Positions 27,428 through 36,597 of a DNA stretch of 64,000 bases are shown here, piece by piece (position 1 is the first letter of the stretch; each line of letters starts with the position of its first letter). The notes below the pieces were generated by a model, which saw nothing but the letters and a program-made list of their open reading frames with translations, was not told the DNA's origin and did not search any database. The DNA is from a bacterium (GTDB lineage Bacteria > Bacillota_I > Bacilli_A > RF39 > UBA660), in NCBI GenBank assembly GCA_963645945.1, contig CAVIUA010000040.1, forward strand, positions 34,353 through 98,352, given 5' to 3'. The translations under genes were made by a program, and so were the position numbers.

Positions 27428-29005
27428 TTATTTTTGTTCTTTATTAGAATCTGTTTTAATAAATGTTTTGTTTTTTTCACTTGTGTTATTATCTTGAGTT
27501 GTATTTGTTGTTAGAAGTTCTTTTTCTTCAATGGACATTCTAGCAAGGTATTCTTTGCAATCGTCTATTTCTTGTTTGGCATCAGCAATTTGTTTTGTAA
27601 TGGTTGCAACTTTATTAGTACGGTGACCAGTGTTTTTTCTTAAACAATTCTTTTTATATTCAATTAAAGAACTTGAACTTTTATATTTATCTATAGCATC
27701 TTGATCTATTGACATAGCATTTCTATATAAATCGATATATGTAGCTACTTCAGCTGATTTTTCGGCAAATTTTTTTATGTAATTTATGTAGCCAGTAATT
27801 GCTTTTGATAATCTATCATCTGGCTGATTATCATTATTTTCTTTACTTTCATCCCAGAAATTATTAAATTCTAAAATAGCTTCTTTTAAAGTTAATGGTC
27901 TATTTGAATAATTTTTAAGACTAGGCATGATAATTTCTAATTTTTCACGTCTACTTAAATCATTTACTTTAGTAATGAAATCTGCTCTCATACTATCTTT
28001 AAAGTCATCTGGTGCAACTATTAAATGATCTATTTCTGACTTTTCAGCAGTATTTACTAATTGTGTTAACTTTTGAACTGTTTTTTTAAAATCTTTATAT
28101 CCATTATTGCTAGTAATATATCTTAAATATTTTATGGTATTCTTTTTACTAGCAAATTTTTCATTATAAAATTTAATTAATTGTGATACTTCAGTAGGTA
28201 ATTTCTTTGTTGTTGTTCCTTTTATACCAGCAGTTTTATATGTGTAGGTATATGTTTCTTCATAGTCCTTGTTCATGTTTTCGTTGTATGCGGCTAAAAG
28301 TTGACCATAATTTATAATTTCATCAGCTGGATTTAATTTTGATGTTATTCTTAATACATCTTTTATAGTAATGTTCCCGTCTGCTTTAGTGTTAATGATA
28401 TCTTGAAGATTTCTTCTATTAGCTTGAGCTTGTTTTATAAACTCTGTTGTTTTTTCGTCATCGTCATTTTGTTCTTGAAGTGTTTTTGCTCTTTCTTGAG
28501 ATAAACTTACTATTTTACTTTCTAAATTTTCTATTCTAAACAAAATGTTTTTTCTTTGTGTTTCGGTTATTTTTGATAATTCTTTAATTATTTCGCCTTT
28601 ATCTCCGGCGATTAGGGAAAGACAACTTTCCATTGTAATATTTTTGGTTGCAGGATTAGTGCTCGCTATTTGAGTAAATTGAGTAATAGGGATGTTATTA
28701 TCTTGAATGTTTATGTCATAGAAATACATTGATGATTTTATAGTTTCACATTCTAGCCAAATTTGTTCATTTACTCCTTTGACATCTGATAATGGTTTTG
28801 TTTTTACTTTCCATTTGAATCCAGTTTCTTTAGATAGGGTAGTTGCTACTTTTGCTAATAACTTTTTACCGTTTATAGTGTGTTTTTGTAAGATGTGTTC
28901 TATTGCAGCAATTGTTCTTTCATCATCATTTAAATAACTATTTAGAAATTTATCTTCATCTATGCCTAGGATTCTACAAAGTATTTCTGTTAATTCTTTA
29001 CTCAT
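27428..29005 (-). CDS. Hypothetical protein (525 aa), predicted largely helical/coiled-coil
   Basis: Long ORF with a ribosome-binding site (AAAAGGAG). Heptad-like charged regions (QERAKTLQEQNDDDEK...). No catalytic motif recognised. Confidence 0.45.
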   Translation of the reverse strand: MSKELTEILCRILGIDEDKFLNSYLNDDERTIAAIEHILQKHTINGKKLLAKVATTLSKETGFKWKVKTKPLSDVKGVNEQIWLECETIKSSMYFYDINIQDNNIPITQFTQIASTNPATKNITMESCLSLIAGDKGEIIKELSKITETQRKNILFRIENLESKIVSLSQERAKTLQEQNDDDEKTTEFIKQAQANRRNLQDIINTKADGNITIKDVLRITSKLNPADEIINYGQLLAAYNENMNKDYEETYTYTYKTAGIKGTTTKKLPTEVSQLIKFYNEKFASKKNTIKYLRYITSNNGYKDFKKTVQKLTQLVNTAEKSEIDHLIVAPDDFKDSMRADFITKVNDLSRREKLEIIMPSLKNYSNRPLTLKEAILEFNNFWDESKENNDNQPDDRLSKAITGYINYIKKFAEKSAEVATYIDLYRNAMSIDQDAIDKYKSSSSLIEYKKNCLRKNTGHRTNKVATITKQIADAKQEIDDCKEYLARMSIEEKELLTTNTTQDNNTSEKNKTFIKTDSNKEQK

Positions 29006-30373: not shown

Positions 30374-31276
30374 ATGATGAATATAAATGACGCTATTGGT
30401 GATTTTATAAATTATTGTATATTTGAAAAGGGTTTATCTAATAAGACGCGGGAATCTTATTTAAATGACTTGGATGTATATAGAAGTTTTTTAAATGAGA
30501 GAGGAATTTTTAATGTTAATGATATTCATGATGATAATATAAAGGATTTTTTAAAGGAAAGAGGTTCTTTGGAAAAGACTACTACTATTGCTCATAATTT
30601 GACAGTTATTAAGAACTTTCATTCCTACTTATTAAGGGAAAACATTTTATCTTATGATCCTTCTTTATATATTGAAAGACCAAAGTTAAGAAAGAGTTTA
30701 CCTAGGACTTTGAGTATGGAAGATGTTAGTCTTTTGCTTGATATTCAATTAGAGAGTGTATTTGACTATCGTAATAAGGCTATGTTAGAATTAATGTATG
30801 GCACCGGCTTAAGAGTTAGTGAAATTGTTAATTTAACTATTAATGATATTGATTTATCTAATTGTTTTGTAAGAGTATTTGGTAAAGGTAGTAAGGAAAG
30901 AGAAGTACCTTTAGGTGAATATTCTATATATTATTTGAAACTTTATTTAGATAGACGTAAAAGTATGTTAAAGGATAAGCCATGTGATAAGTTATTTTTA
31001 AATAATCATGGTTTAGGTATGACAAGACAAGGTTTTTTTAAGAACTTGAAACAGATACTTGTTTCTAAAGGTTTAAATGCTGATATATCACCTCATACGT
31101 TAAGACATAGTTTTGCTACTCATTTATTAAATTCTGGTGCAGATTTACGTAGTATTCAGGAGATGTTAGGTCATTCTGATATTGCGACTACTAAAATATA
31201 TACGCATGTTAGTGATGATAAAGTTATAGAAGACTATAATATGTATCATCCTCGTAGTCATAAAGGAGATGAATAA
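30374..31276 (+). CDS. xerD: Site-specific tyrosine recombinase XerD
   Basis: R..HxxR..Y catalytic signature (HTLRHSFATHLL ... LGHSDIATTKIYTH). The xerD-deoB adjacency is as in B. subtilis ripX-drm. Confidence 0.85.
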   Translation: MMNINDAIGDFINYCIFEKGLSNKTRESYLNDLDVYRSFLNERGIFNVNDIHDDNIKDFLKERGSLEKTTTIAHNLTVIKNFHSYLLRENILSYDPSLYIERPKLRKSLPRTLSMEDVSLLLDIQLESVFDYRNKAMLELMYGTGLRVSEIVNLTINDIDLSNCFVRVFGKGSKEREVPLGEYSIYYLKLYLDRRKSMLKDKPCDKLFLNNHGLGMTRQGFFKNLKQILVSKGLNADISPHTLRHSFATHLLNSGADLRSIQEMLGHSDIATTKIYTHVSDDKVIEDYNMYHPRSHKGDE

Positions 31277-31278
31277 TT

Positions 31279-32448
31279 ATGCGTTTTAAAAGAATTTTTT
31301 TGATTGTTTTAGATTCGTTAGGTGTTGGTGAAACTGCTGATGCGGTTAGTTTTGGTGACAATGGTGCTAATACATTAGGCCATGTTAATGAACAATGTGA
31401 TTTATTTATACCTAATTTAAAGAAAATAGGTTTTTTAGATACAATTAATATGAGTGATAATGATAGTGTAGATGCTTATTATACTATTGCTAAACCTATA
31501 AATGCTGGTAAAGATACTTTGAATGGTCATTATGAAATGTTAGGTATTAAGAATAATATTCCATTTAAAACTTTTAATAATGGTTTTACATATGATATTT
31601 TAGCTGGTATTGAAGAAGTTACTGGTAGACGTGTTATTGGTAATAAATGTTCTAATGATGATTTAGCTATTATTAATGAACTTGGTGAAAGACAATTAAA
31701 TTATGGATCTTTAATTATTTATACTTCTGCTGATTCAGATTTACAAGTTGCGGCACATGAAGATTGTATTCCTATTCCTACTTTGTATCAGTATTGTGAA
31801 AGAATTAGAGCTTTAACTTTAAGAGAGGAATGGAGAGTAGGGAGAGTTATTGCTAGACCTTTTACTGGTAGCGTTGGTAAATTTAAACTTATTAATACTG
31901 CACGACGTGATTATGCTGTAAAGCCAGGTAAAAAGACTGTTATGGATAGTTTAATTGAAAATAGTTATAATGTTATTGCGATTGGAAAGATTAATGATAT
32001 TTTTGATGGTCAAGGTATAAATAAAAATATTAAGGCTAATAATAATTCGGAAGCTGTAAATAAATTGATTGATATTATGGATAAAAATTTTACAGGTTTA
32101 TGTATAAGTAATTTATCTGATTTTGATAGTTTGTATGGTCATACTAGGGATGTTGCTGGTTATGGTAGAGCAATTGAAGAGTTAGATGTTGATATACCTA
32201 TTATTTTAAATAAATTAGAAATTGATGACTTATTAATTATTACAGCTGATCATGGTAATGATCCTACGTTTAAAGGAAATGATCATACGAGAGAAAATGT
32301 TCCAGTAATTATATATAGTCGCAATTTCAAGAAACCTTCTAGATTAAAACCATTTGATACTTTTGCTAATATAGGAGCAACAATAGCTGAAAATTTCGAT
32401 GTAGAAAAACCTGAAATTGGTATCAGTATTTTAGATGAATTAAAGTAG
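31279..32448 (+). CDS. deoB: Phosphopentomutase
   Basis: N-terminal VLDSLGVGE metal-binding motif. 389 aa. Confidence 0.9.
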   Translation: MRFKRIFLIVLDSLGVGETADAVSFGDNGANTLGHVNEQCDLFIPNLKKIGFLDTINMSDNDSVDAYYTIAKPINAGKDTLNGHYEMLGIKNNIPFKTFNNGFTYDILAGIEEVTGRRVIGNKCSNDDLAIINELGERQLNYGSLIIYTSADSDLQVAAHEDCIPIPTLYQYCERIRALTLREEWRVGRVIARPFTGSVGKFKLINTARRDYAVKPGKKTVMDSLIENSYNVIAIGKINDIFDGQGINKNIKANNNSEAVNKLIDIMDKNFTGLCISNLSDFDSLYGHTRDVAGYGRAIEELDVDIPIILNKLEIDDLLIITADHGNDPTFKGNDHTRENVPVIIYSRNFKKPSRLKPFDTFANIGATIAENFDVEKPEIGISILDELK

Positions 32449-32463
32449 TTTTGGAGTTAATAT

Positions 32464-33756
32464 ATGAAAAAAGCAGATATTGAAAATGATGATTATTTGA
32501 TTATTCATCCGAATGGTGACTTTACTAGTTCTTTAAAGATTGATCAGGATGAACTTACTAAAAAGAAAGTGATTTGTTTGATTCCTGAATTTTCTTATTT
32601 GGATGATAAATGTTCTTCACGTACTATTAGTGAGATTAATGCATTTATTAGAAATAATCCATCGGTTAGTAATGTACTTATGATTTATACTAATAGTACT
32701 AACTCTGATTTTAATTTTAATGATGAACTTAATATGGAAGAATTTTTTTGCAAATGGTATAAGAATATTGAACAACCGGAAAAGATTCAGCTACATGTTC
32801 CTAGTATATTTGCTGCTAATCCTGATAATTGTTTATCAGTTGTTTATGAAGACTTTTCTTTGAGTCGTTGCAAGGATATTGATCAAAAAATTGAGATGTT
32901 TATTAAAGATGTTAAAGAAGCTGATTTATCTTCTTTTGAAAAGATTATGGCTACTCATATTTTGTGTTCTCGTTTTATGAATTCAAATACTGATTATGAA
33001 GAAAATGGGAAAAATACTATTCCTATAAATTTTGATGAGAATGTCTTTGGCAGTAGTATGCATATTTTGAGTGATGGTGAAGATGGATATAAAATTAAAT
33101 GTTCTGGCTATGTTGATATGTTTGTCCGTATGTTAGATAAAATGAATATTTATGCATCTCCTGTTACTGTTTTTAATGTTGAAAATGGATTTGTTCATAC
33201 TGTTGCGATGGTTGATGTTCATGATGAAAAGTATAGTATTGATGGTAGATATATTTGTGACTTAAGGTCTGATTCAGATTTTAGAAAAATGCGTGAAGAT
33301 TTAGTTAATGGAGATACAAATTCTTCTTATTTTGGAAGAGATAGTTTAACGTTTTTTTGCTTAAATGTTGAAGATTTTGAAGCTTTAAATGGAATTGATA
33401 AATTTAGTGAGGCTATGAATTATTTTACAAAACCGGGAGTAGAGCAGGTAAAGGATGAAATTTCTACAGATAGGTTAGATATTTCTAGTATTTCTAAAGC
33501 ATTAGGCGTTGTTTCAAATCATAGATTTGATTTACAAAATAATTTAGATTATTATTTATATAGTAATAATGCTATTGAATCAATTCTTCAGGATAATAAA
33601 GATACTATTTCTTTCATTAGAAATTCTAGAGAATTTATAGATAGTTCTAAAAACAGTTCTTTTTCTACTATCTGTAGTTCTGAATTCAAATTAAAAGAGA
33701 TGCTTGATTCTTCCAAAAAGAATGCAATTAATACAACTGAAAAAAATAAAAAATAG
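32464..33756 (+). CDS. Transglutaminase-like (cysteine-protease fold) protein, paralog 1
   Basis: Core KCSGYVDMFVRML...NIYASPV (Cys), FVHTVAMVDV (His) and ICDLRSD (Asp) follow the C/H/D order of the transglutaminase-like core. Shares SSFEKIMA and DVHDEKY.IDGRYICD blocks with the next gene. Confidence 0.45.
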   Translation: MKKADIENDDYLIIHPNGDFTSSLKIDQDELTKKKVICLIPEFSYLDDKCSSRTISEINAFIRNNPSVSNVLMIYTNSTNSDFNFNDELNMEEFFCKWYKNIEQPEKIQLHVPSIFAANPDNCLSVVYEDFSLSRCKDIDQKIEMFIKDVKEADLSSFEKIMATHILCSRFMNSNTDYEENGKNTIPINFDENVFGSSMHILSDGEDGYKIKCSGYVDMFVRMLDKMNIYASPVTVFNVENGFVHTVAMVDVHDEKYSIDGRYICDLRSDSDFRKMREDLVNGDTNSSYFGRDSLTFFCLNVEDFEALNGIDKFSEAMNYFTKPGVEQVKDEISTDRLDISSISKALGVVSNHRFDLQNNLDYYLYSNNAIESILQDNKDTISFIRNSREFIDSSKNSSFSTICSSEFKLKEMLDSSKKNAINTTEKNKK

Positions 33757-33765
33757 GAATAATAG

Positions 33766-34962
33766 GTGATATGGATGAAAAAAATTGATTTAGACGATAG
33801 TTCAGAATATGTATTTTTTAATTGTAATGGTGATATTTCAGATATTCCTATTTTATTTGGTTCAAAACAACCAGTTATATTTGTTGTTGATGATATGTTG
33901 GATGATGAGTCTTTTCAAAAAAGAGTAATTGATGAGATTAATGAATTTTTAAAGAAAAATATTTCTCTTTCTGATGTTATTATTGCTCCTTATCCTGTAG
34001 AATTTGATTTTTCTCGATTTTTGAAGTTTGAAAATTTGTTTTATAAAGAATATGATAGTATTTTAGAGCCTGAACGTATTTCTTTAAGAACTATCGATCA
34101 TTATATATCTAGAGTATTTGATGATGAAACTGTAAAGGCTTGTTGTGAACCTTTTCCTTTAAAACGTTGTAAAGAAGTCAATGACAAGTTAGATTTATTT
34201 ATTAAGGATATTAAGAAAAGCGATTTATCTTCTTTTGAAAAGATTATGGCTAGTTATCTTATTTGTACTCATTTTATTGATTCTGTTCATGATAATAAGA
34301 TAGAGGAAGAATACGATAAAAATATTTATAGTAGTGTTTTTCATATTTTAGGCGATGATGAGGATGGATATCAAATAAAATGTGCTGGTTATACAGATTT
34401 ATTTGCTAGAATGTTAGCTAAACTTGATATAGATGCTGTACCTTTATTAATATCTTGTTCTAATATTAATCTTTATCATAGCATAGCGGCTGTTGATGTT
34501 CATGATGAGAAGTATGGTATTGATGGACGTTACATATGTGATGTACGATTTGATTCTGATAGCAGAGAAGTTATTGATAAAAAGGTTAGGGATAGATTAA
34601 CTGATGAAGAAAAAACACACTATTATACTTATAACAGTTTAAAAGCTTTTTGTCTGACGTTTCATGATTACGATTATTTAATTAATTCTGATATGGAACA
34701 AATAATATATTCTTCAGGACCAGGTGTTGATGATGCTGAATTATCGATTTCTGATGATAGAGTAGAATTGGCTAATTTAAGTAATGCTTTAATGAGGGTT
34801 TCTTTGTTTACATATTTAACTAAAGGAAATAATGAATTGTCTACTGATGATAGTATATTAGAAAATGTTTTTAAAGAAGTTAATAAAACTTCTAATAAAA
34901 TTGCTTCTTTTAGAAAAAAATCTGATCAATTTTATGTTAATTTATTTGGTAATGAAAAATAG
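33766..34962 (+). CDS. Transglutaminase-like (cysteine-protease fold) protein, paralog 2
   Basis: IKCAGYTDLFARML...IDAVP, LYHSIAAVDV and ICDVRFD. Roughly 30% identical to paralog 1 over the whole length by eye. Confidence 0.45.
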   Translation: MIWMKKIDLDDSSEYVFFNCNGDISDIPILFGSKQPVIFVVDDMLDDESFQKRVIDEINEFLKKNISLSDVIIAPYPVEFDFSRFLKFENLFYKEYDSILEPERISLRTIDHYISRVFDDETVKACCEPFPLKRCKEVNDKLDLFIKDIKKSDLSSFEKIMASYLICTHFIDSVHDNKIEEEYDKNIYSSVFHILGDDEDGYQIKCAGYTDLFARMLAKLDIDAVPLLISCSNINLYHSIAAVDVHDEKYGIDGRYICDVRFDSDSREVIDKKVRDRLTDEEKTHYYTYNSLKAFCLTFHDYDYLINSDMEQIIYSSGPGVDDAELSISDDRVELANLSNALMRVSLFTYLTKGNNELSTDDSILENVFKEVNKTSNKIASFRKKSDQFYVNLFGNEK

Positions 34963-35618
34963 GCTGGTTATCGCCCTATTTATCTTTTTATGCAAAAAAA
35001 TCATCATGCATTTTCAAAACTTTGACATATTGTTTCTTCTGTACATTCACATTTATCACTGTTGCAAGTACAGCTAATTTTTATTGATTCTAATTCACAA
35101 CATTCTTTGTCTTTTCTAATTATTATTTTGAAGATTTTTTTCTAAATTATGCAATGTTAAATATTTTAAATTTAGATGAACAATTATACATCTTTTAATA
35201 TTTAAATCGCTTAAAATGCATTTTAGATTTTATACATAATTTTTAATAGGGCGGTAATATTTAAATTAATATAGAATTAATCAGACACATTTAATAATAT
35301 AAAATGATTAATAAGTAATAATAAAATAATACTATGATAAATAAAATAGATTTACAGATAAAAAGTAATTAAAATAATTAAAATGAATTTATATTTAAAA
35401 TTTATATATGGTATTATATAATTAGTTGGAGATAAATGGATAGAAATAGAATGTAGTAATCCTTATTTATATAAATATATAAAGATAGGGTAATATTTAT
35501 TTTGATTTTGAAATATATATAGAAGTTAACATAATATCAATTATAGGAAGTTATAATATTAAAAAAATAGATGAATATATGATTGTTTATGTATATAAAT
35601 TAAGTTATTGAACTTATA

Positions 35619-35829: not shown

Positions 35830-36597
35830 TTATACTTTTCTAGACTGAATCTCAGCTATTTTTTCTAATACTTCTTTAGCATTATCTTCATTTATTTCAG
35901 TGTAACCTAGTTCTTTTAAGGCTTGAACTTTAGCTGTATTTAGTTCTTGAGTACGAGATAATTTTTCTTCATTCTTATGTTCAATATCTTCCTCAAATCG
36001 TTTATGTGTAGCAGCTAATTTTGTTTTAGATGCACCACCGTTGTTATATAAAGTCATTGCACTGAACATAATACTTTCAAATATAAACTGTTTTTCACTA
36101 TTGAAAGCAAAGTCCAATGGAGGTGTAAATCCTAAAGATTTTGAAACATATCCTAATATATATTTTAATTCATTATTTGTTTCCATCGATTGTAGAAAAT
36201 GATATAGATATAAATATGTGTTATAAGTTTCTTTTGTTTTATCAGAAGATAGTTTTTCTTTTAATATATTTATAATATCTGATAACAATTCTTGCTCTTT
36301 TTTATTAAATCCTTTTAGATCAGCTATTATATCTTTGCTGGAAGAATCTTTTACTCCTTCATTTAGCCTATTCTCTACTTCAATTATATATTCACCATTG
36401 ATTTTTAAATCTTTTAATTCATCAATTTTTTCTATATTTAATAAGCTTAATAATTTAGCAGCTTTTTCTTTTGGCCAGTTATTAATATCTTCTATAGCTA
36501 GATAATTATATAACATTTGTCTTGATACCCCTAAATATTTAGCTAAACGTACTTTACTAATTCCTAATTCTGTTAATACTATATTTAATTCTTTCAT
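35830..36597 (-). CDS. XRE-family helix-turn-helix regulator with a C-terminal domain of unknown function
   Basis: N-terminal HTH (LGISKVRLAKYLGVSRQMLYNY). 255 aa. Confidence 0.6.
   Translation of the reverse strand: MKELNIVLTELGISKVRLAKYLGVSRQMLYNYLAIEDINNWPKEKAAKLLSLLNIEKIDELKDLKINGEYIIEVENRLNEGVKDSSSKDIIADLKGFNKKEQELLSDIINILKEKLSSDKTKETYNTYLYLYHFLQSMETNNELKYILGYVSKSLGFTPPLDFAFNSEKQFIFESIMFSAMTLYNNGGASKTKLAATHKRFEEDIEHKNEEKLSRTQELNTAKVQALKELGYTEINEDNAKEVLEKIAEIQSRKV

Follow-up and report, generated by a model that had tools for sequence, protein, structure and literature searches.

We analysed two adjacent genes, here called A and B, in a 64,000-nucleotide stretch of bacterial DNA (GenBank assembly GCA_963645945.1, contig CAVIUA010000040.1, positions 34,353 to 98,352 of the forward strand), which we refer to as the window; coordinates below count from its first nucleotide. 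The G+C content is ~27%. A and B end a co-directional run of four genes on the plus strand, xerD-deoB-A-B, and are followed, 560 bp on, by a dif-like Xer site. An earlier note, made from the sequence of the window, had described A and B as tandem diverged paralogs sharing the Cys-His-Asp core of transglutaminase-like or papain-like enzymes. Both parts of that description are taken up here with profile searches, structure models and a comparison of related loci.

The tandem genes A and B

Gene A (32464-33756, plus strand; 430 aa; subtype Aa in the classification given below) begins 15 nt past the deoB stop codon, behind a GGAG ribosome-binding site, and is followed by B (plus strand; subtype B). 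The earlier note listed them as consecutive open reading frames between 32464 and 34962, and both are present. For B its reading frame holds but its length of 398 aa, counted from GTG 33766, is the less likely one. Since ATG 33775 is preceded by the ribosome-binding site AGGTGA and the database copy of B has 395 aa, B most likely spans 33775-34962 and encodes 395 aa. The intergenic gaps along xerD, deoB, A and B are 2, 15 and 18 nt, with recognisable ribosome-binding sites; because of this operon-like arrangement, A and B are presumably co-transcribed. A profile search found no third family copy within the window, and Rfam gave no match there.

Paralogy is borne out by BLASTP, which aligns A and B at 39% identity over 359 residues (expectation value, E, 2e-73). 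The blocks that had been noticed as shared (SSFEKIMA, EDGY.IKC.GY, VDVHDEKY.IDGRYICD and FCL) all fall inside this alignment, and the cores of the two genes are 71-74% identical even in DNA (repeats D1 and D2). The N-terminal extensions of about 150 aa had been described as differing from each other, but they are not unrelated: the alignment begins at residue 1, and ~130 N-terminal residues are homologous. This region is nonetheless the more variable one, with 21-30% identity between subtypes vs 48-58% for the core.

Signal peptides, whose prediction the earlier note had suggested as a check, were not found. No family member has a signal peptide or membrane segment (the highest 19-residue Kyte-Doolittle mean is 1.39), and A and B are therefore probably cytoplasmic.

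The candidate transglutaminase-like core

In family alignments of 19 and of 28 members, one Cys, one His and one Asp are invariant, and all further copies examined have them too. Some 30 further positions are also invariant, and the motifs C.GY, H and CD[LIV]R are kept in every copy examined. In A the three residues are the predicted nucleophile Cys213 (in KCSGY; codon 33100-33102), His245 (in FVHTVAMVD; 33196-33198) and Asp266 (in ICDLR, which replaces the canonical DPT; 33259-33261), all on the plus strand and all in invariant columns. The predicted triad of B, also on the plus strand, is Cys203 (34381-34383), His235 (34477-34479) and Asp256 (34540-34542).

The connection to known enzymes is transitive. 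A profile of the family retrieved 236 distant relatives, mainly at profile positions 125-270, which make up the core. Scanned against Pfam and NCBIfam, 89 of these relatives gave 20 matches to PF01841 (Transglut_core; best E 1.2e-6), 25 to NF045980 (MAG6410 family transglutaminase-related lipoprotein) and two to DUF553 (PF04473). For all three PF01841-matching proteins checked individually, the PF01841 region overlaps the region of the family profile. A profile of the distant relatives matches A and B at E 4e-38 to 4e-41, its columns aligning KCSGY (C213), FVHTV (H245) and ICDLR (D266) of A. The same profile matches 9crn_A, from the Streptococcus pyogenes protein TglA, at E 1.1e-10, with IVCxGY/VCNGY, the His and fDpT/GDP aligned. 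A direct hhalign comparison of the narrow family with the TglA fragment again aligned Cys and His. Homology to the superfamily over the catalytic region was thus found by profile and transitive search.

AlphaFold models were made of both proteins (A: predicted local distance difference test, pLDDT, 76, predicted template modelling score, pTM, 0.80; B: pLDDT 83.7, pTM 0.87). That of A has an N-terminal alpha/beta domain (aa 1-132), a transglutaminase-like core (133-275) and a helical C-terminal region ending in a disordered tail rich in Lys, Asn and Ser; B has the same three-part architecture. Secondary structure from DSSP places Cys213 of A just before helix 216-226, His245 on strand 243-254 and Asp266 at the end of strand 259-265. 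The model of B shows the same layout: its Cys stands directly before a helix, with the His on a strand and the Asp where the following strand ends. Both models therefore have the order Cys-His-Asp, with Cys at a helix start and His and Asp on adjacent strands, and the three residues are predicted to form a catalytic triad.

In Foldseek searches of the PDB, TglA (9CRN) was the only match below E 1e-3 for the model of A (E 4.4e-4, probability 1.00), and the top and only significant one for that of B (E 6.9e-5, probability 1.00). The model of B also retrieved 3ISR (probability 0.91-0.93) and 3KD4, which are transglutaminase-like putative proteases, and an arylamine N-acetyltransferase. Foldseek against BFVD found nothing. 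An assignment of the N-terminal domain as TOPRIM or CARF-like was considered and rejected, the Foldseek matches being weak (probability 0.1-0.4) and a conserved acidic motif being absent.

TglA, annotated as a 'Transglutaminase-like domain-containing protein', is similar to A and B in size (379 aa) and in having its core ~125 residues from the N-terminus, and its Cys (VCNGY), His (HAWN) and Asp (GDP) stand in the same profile columns as those of the C.GY Cys, His and Asp of A and B. Its sequence identity to them is 13-16%, beyond the reach of direct sequence search. It also keeps the canonical motifs HAW and DP, which in A and B read H.V and D[LV]R, and its genomic context, seen on the downstream side only (tadA, a metallo-beta-lactamase-fold gene and bioY), is unrelated to the A/B locus. 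A protein-database search with the TglA fragment returned solely a truncated 'S-layer protein' entry in an uninformative context. The Transglut_core and DUF553 families resemble A and B in having the Cys at a helix start, followed by His and Asp on strands, and the 'S.FEK...Y' helix before the Cys of A and B resembles the usual start of a Transglut_core domain; A and B differ in having extra N- and C-terminal domains that have no family assignment. The MAG6410 lipoproteins of Mycoplasma (NF045980) share the core and come, like A and B, from very AT-rich, Mollicutes-like hosts. A and B nevertheless do not match NF045980 at E up to 10 and have no lipoprotein signal, and by this model they are not members; relatives of the MAG6410 type also exceed them in length, and for most the match to the family profile is confined to its core. 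The one mention of MAG6410 found in the literature is an entry in a table of transposon mutants.

Several observations weigh against placing A and B in this superfamily. In direct scans neither protein matched any Pfam, NCBIfam, PHROG or PADLOC model above noise, and PF01841 gave no match to either at E up to 10, so that by this curated hidden Markov model (HMM) they are not members. Two of 19 family members match DUF553, below threshold (E 0.0055), and the family profile, run against PDB sequences, returned nothing but a spurious match to GGDEF (E 1.9). D[LVI]R stands where the canonical DPT follows the catalytic Asp. The Foldseek alignments to 9CRN cover 357-367 columns for both models, but with TM-scores of 0.26-0.34 and root mean square deviations of 13-16 Å, a poor global superposition. 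Model confidence is low just before the catalytic Cys (A 174-208; B 173-180 and 196-201). A literature search for S. pyogenes TglA or 9CRN found no publication, and no activity, substrate or partner is on record for the family.

The earlier note had held that the lack of any significant HMM hit would speak against its proposal. Direct hits are indeed lacking, and the superfamily assignment accordingly rests on profile and structure evidence; what supports the Cys-His-Asp core is the transitive homology, the catalytic columns shared with TglA and the two AlphaFold models. A and B are best regarded as forming a new branch within the transglutaminase-like superfamily, as yet unmodelled and outside its named families.

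Turnover in the slot between deoB and the DUF1540 gene

The xerD-type recombinase gene that opens the run (30374-31276, plus strand) has orthologs with the Pfam domains Phage_int_SAM_1 and Phage_integrase, and shows 94-95% amino acid identity in near-conspecific loci. Next is deoB (31279-32448, plus strand), a phosphopentomutase gene of the Metalloenzyme family by the Pfam families of its orthologs, which forms the conserved left border of a variable slot. The right border in related genomes is a small gene for a Cys-rich DUF1540 protein. In the window this gene is a start-less remnant of 45 codons (35007-35141, minus strand). Most related genomes have it intact here, with 75-84 aa, among them five loci (L001, L005, L009, L011 and L014; such loci are designated by L numbers and individual homologs by P numbers); the DUF1540 match has E 7.9e-6. 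The conserved order is rarA (minus strand), xerD, deoB, the family gene or genes, DUF1540 (minus), dif and a gene for a 255-aa helix-turn-helix (HTH) protein (minus).

The family is rare: a search of 5.8 billion proteins found 19 clusters, a profile query raised this to 29, and an exhaustive profile search of 1.8 billion proteins gave 14 representatives at E<1e-30. No source in the protein collections names any member, and tblastn against phage and plasmid collections found no homolog. The hosts are uncultured 'Bacilli bacterium' metagenome-assembled genomes from human gut samples, together with metagenome contigs, several of them also from human gut, and the family seems to be confined to uncultured low-GC Bacilli. 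Being rare, sporadic and present in arrays of up to three copies, these are not ubiquitous single-copy housekeeping genes, the finding that the earlier note had named as another blow to its proposal.

Slot content varies among loci whose rarA, xerD and deoB are 94-98% identical to those of the window (L013, L005 and L008-L010; deoB is 98% identical in L005 and L008-L010). L013 has an A gene 71% identical to that of the window, plus B. In L005, with flanks at 95-98%, the gene in the A position is of another subtype (39% identical), beside a B gene that is 83% identical. B stands alone in L008, L009 and L010 (75-78% identical). Orthologs of B are thus 75-83% identical to that of the window, and up to 89% among themselves, vs 98% for the flanks. 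L014 has an Aa-type gene alone, and in L025, a relative of L014 by its flanking genes (deoB 94%), the slot is empty. A neighbour-joining tree and per-domain identities separate at least four subtypes at roughly equal distances from one another (Aa, Ab, Ac and B) and a further clade (P0022-P0025). Subtypes are only 33-40% identical to one another, more than 40 intact copies are known, and the combinations seen are Aa+B, Ab+B, Aa only, B only and Ac only.

To remove ascertainment bias for the family, 61 loci were gathered through deoB alone. A clade with deoB ~88% identical holds no copy (L031, L034), one (L027, L037), two (L028, L033) or three (L032, L035, L036), and in L026 frameshifted fragments of a pseudogene lie beside an intact copy. 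At loci sampled in this way with deoB at 81% identity or less the family is absent. A mosaic gene reveals recombination between array members: copy 3 of L032 (9915-11090) is identical to copy 3 of L035 (9915-11078) over its first ~45 residues, while the remainder is 95-100% identical to copy 3 of L026 (3660-4874), whose N-terminus differs. Genes of the A/B family are accessory: the stretch from deoB to the DUF1540 gene is a slot of variable content, in which they are duplicated, lost, exchanged for deeply diverged subtypes and recombined with their paralogs.

In other clades, which include some of the loci with deoB at 81% identity or less, the place between deoB and the DUF1540 gene is taken by a different orphan gene of ~330 aa (MDICKVYIVDS...HIPFVHHEYTDYWERGIP...), which has no Pfam match (L043 4646-5638; L048 7168-8169; L050 7168-8175; L049 4426-5397; L077 815-1825).

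Position and presence bear on a metabolic reading, by which A and B are housekeeping partners of deoB, standing where a nucleoside phosphorylase gene might and serving nucleoside salvage or the modification of DeoB or XerD. The earlier note had proposed that they stand in for the pupG found beside xerD-deoB in Bacillus subtilis; of this proposal the identities of xerD and deoB are confirmed. In this lineage the family does lie directly after xerD-deoB with operon-like spacing, even in the divergent member P0021, and the distant homolog P0030 is two genes from a pyrimidine-nucleoside phosphorylase gene. Such synteny is, however, vertical inheritance in one lineage and not independent evidence. 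Furthermore, L025, L031, L034 and most loci with deoB at 81% identity or less keep xerD-deoB and lack the family, other distant homologs adjoin YebC with TraC-like genes, HSP20 or genes of no known function, and phosphorylases have a fold other than the Cys-His-Asp papain one. Absence from close relatives and the unrelated contexts of distant homologs largely refute the link to nucleoside salvage, and we consider a partnership with deoB highly improbable.

Copy number bears equally on the earlier suggestion of an effector and immunity locus, in the form of a polymorphic toxin with its cognate immunity gene, one paralog being exported or delivered and the other neutralising it. Tandem diverged paralogs in variable number would suit such a system, and MAG6410-family surface lipoproteins of Mycoplasma are among the distant relatives. 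Against it, both paralogs have the full triad and the same architecture, neither being immunity-like, and there are genomes with A alone, B alone or three copies. Signal peptide, lipobox, toxin domains, domains of the LXG, Rhs or type VII secretion type and neighbouring secretion genes are all missing, as are any small partner gene and any PADLOC or PHROG match, and the ratio of nonsynonymous to synonymous substitution rates (dN/dS, below) stays under 1. With both paralogs full-length putative enzymes that lack export signals, the suggestion is not upheld, and this is the least probable of all the explanations considered.

Mycoplasma species have tandem multigene families beside Xer-type recombinase genes, for example the vpma locus of M. 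agalactiae. Loci of this type share with A and B the tandem diverged paralogs near an xerD-type gene and the recombination between paralogs. A and B differ in lying on one strand only, in not encoding lipoproteins and in that their xerD is a conserved chromosomal gene. Xer-driven inversion, or a dif-flanked module, was examined and rejected, as neither inverted repeats nor pseudo-dif sites were found next to the two genes.

Selection was estimated by the Nei-Gojobori method, pairwise and in sliding windows. dN/dS is 0.34 for A and 0.20-0.31 for B, compared with 0.01-0.04 for rarA and deoB and about 0.1 for xerD, or overall 0.2-0.35 for the family vs 0.01-0.1 for the flanks, and the dN of the family is ~10 times that of the flanks. 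Positive selection was sought and rejected: dN/dS never exceeds 1, peaking at 0.91 in a lone 40-codon block from one pairwise comparison and at 0.52 in pooled data. On these estimates the family is under purifying but relaxed selection, with its predicted active site intact. Its diversity stems from gene turnover, old paralogous subtypes and recombination, not from detectable positive selection.

Relaxed constraint, frequent loss and the pseudogene of L026 would also fit functionless or decaying duplicates that drift in a recombination-prone terminus, their Cys-His-Asp similarity being no longer meaningful; dN/dS is similar in a neighbouring orphan gene, orf525. The ratios of 0.2-0.35 nevertheless signify purifying selection, the triad and ~30 other invariant residues persist in each of the more than 40 intact copies, although subtypes are only 33-40% identical, and the models are confident. 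We find decay very unlikely.

The orphan orf525 lies in the window at 27428-29005 (minus strand), between a LemA-family gene and rarA, and encodes 525 aa with no Pfam match. It is itself fast-evolving, with 82-86% identity vs 98% for its neighbours and dN/dS of 0.19-0.27; in L001 two RNA-modification genes stand in its place.

The dif site and candidate roles

In the AT-rich gap after B lies a 28-bp dif-like Xer site, ACTTCCTATAATTGATATTATGTTAACT (35524-35551, minus strand). It shares 24 of 28 bases with the dif sequence of Bacillus subtilis as printed in PMC3025954. The site has zero or one mismatch in ~35 related loci whose proteins are only 66-98% identical. Gene orientation converges at it, and xerD is 4 kb away. 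Cumulative GC skew peaks at 34-38 kb, with a change of sign, although its magnitudes are asymmetric (+0.3 vs -0.05) and skew alone would be no more than suggestive. From the dif-like site, the converging gene orientation and the skew peak together, the window probably spans the replication terminus. Directly beyond dif is the gene of the 255-aa HTH protein (35830-36597, minus strand), which has a weak N-terminal HTH_3 match and is conserved (76-100% identity) in nearly all related loci.

At two related loci an insertion of ~4.6 kb at dif (L009 7890-12547; L034 4002-8785) is bounded by dif and a half-degenerate dif copy, and in L009 the breakpoint of this prophage insertion falls at the dif-like site. 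The L009 insertion encodes Rep_OBD/RepB_C, a weakly matched Zot-like P-loop ATPase and small membrane proteins; L005 and L013 have an insertion with similar genes, and the window is without this element. The insertion appears to be an inovirus-like element brought into dif by Xer recombination.

With profiles, models and loci taken together, we consider it fairly probable that A and B are cytoplasmic thiol enzymes of the transglutaminase-like or papain fold, accessory genes in a variable slot beside dif. We further infer catalytic activity, a protein substrate and some biological role. In the proposed reaction the His would activate the Cys for attack on an amide bond in the substrate, a protein or peptide, and a thioester intermediate would form. 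This could be resolved by water, as in a protease, isopeptidase or deamidase, or by an amine, which would give cross-linking. Substrate choice would fall to the N- and C-terminal domains, which are poorly conserved and are also swapped between paralogs.

A more specific role would be in conflict, A and B acting as effectors, sensors or counter-defence against phages or other mobile elements, with the variable termini recognising foreign proteins and the core cleaving or modifying the target. The pattern of the slot invites this reading, through presence and absence, zero to three copies in close relatives, at least four diverged subtypes, the mosaic gene and the pseudogene. So do the ~10-fold higher dN, the concentration of variation outside the catalytic core, the dif site close by that an inovirus-like element uses in relatives, and the other orphan gene in the same slot of other clades, as at a variable hotspot. 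On the other side, PADLOC-DB v2 (0 families at E up to 1) and PHROG gave no match, no NTPase, nuclease or sensor partner gene lies nearby, and dN/dS is below 1 in all windows tested. The dif prophage shows no exclusion, since it coexists with A and B (L005, L013), with B only (L009) and with none (L034), and proximity to the terminus could by itself explain high turnover. We regard a role in conflict as possible but, on present evidence, unlikely. Its fullest form has a slim chance: the array would serve small-genome gut Bacilli as a hitherto unrecognised module of immunity or conflict consisting of a single gene, a transglutaminase-fold protease joined to exchangeable recognition domains at its N- and C-termini, diversified by cassette replacement and recombination between paralogs and placed next to the dif site, where filamentous phages that exploit Xer integrate.

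As probable thiol enzymes of an accessory slot beside dif, A and B represent a family that no Pfam or NCBIfam model covers, and in which a putative papain-fold enzyme behaves as a fast-turnover accessory cassette, subject to gain, loss, swap and recombination, while its predicted active site is invariant. Perhaps more immediately useful is a by-product: the conserved dif site, which in relatives has an inovirus-like element integrated at it, probably marks the replication terminus of these uncultured genomes. If the variable domains of the family pick foreign targets, the family would add a new type of module to defence or counter-defence; if they do not, it would be one more orphan branch of a large superfamily.

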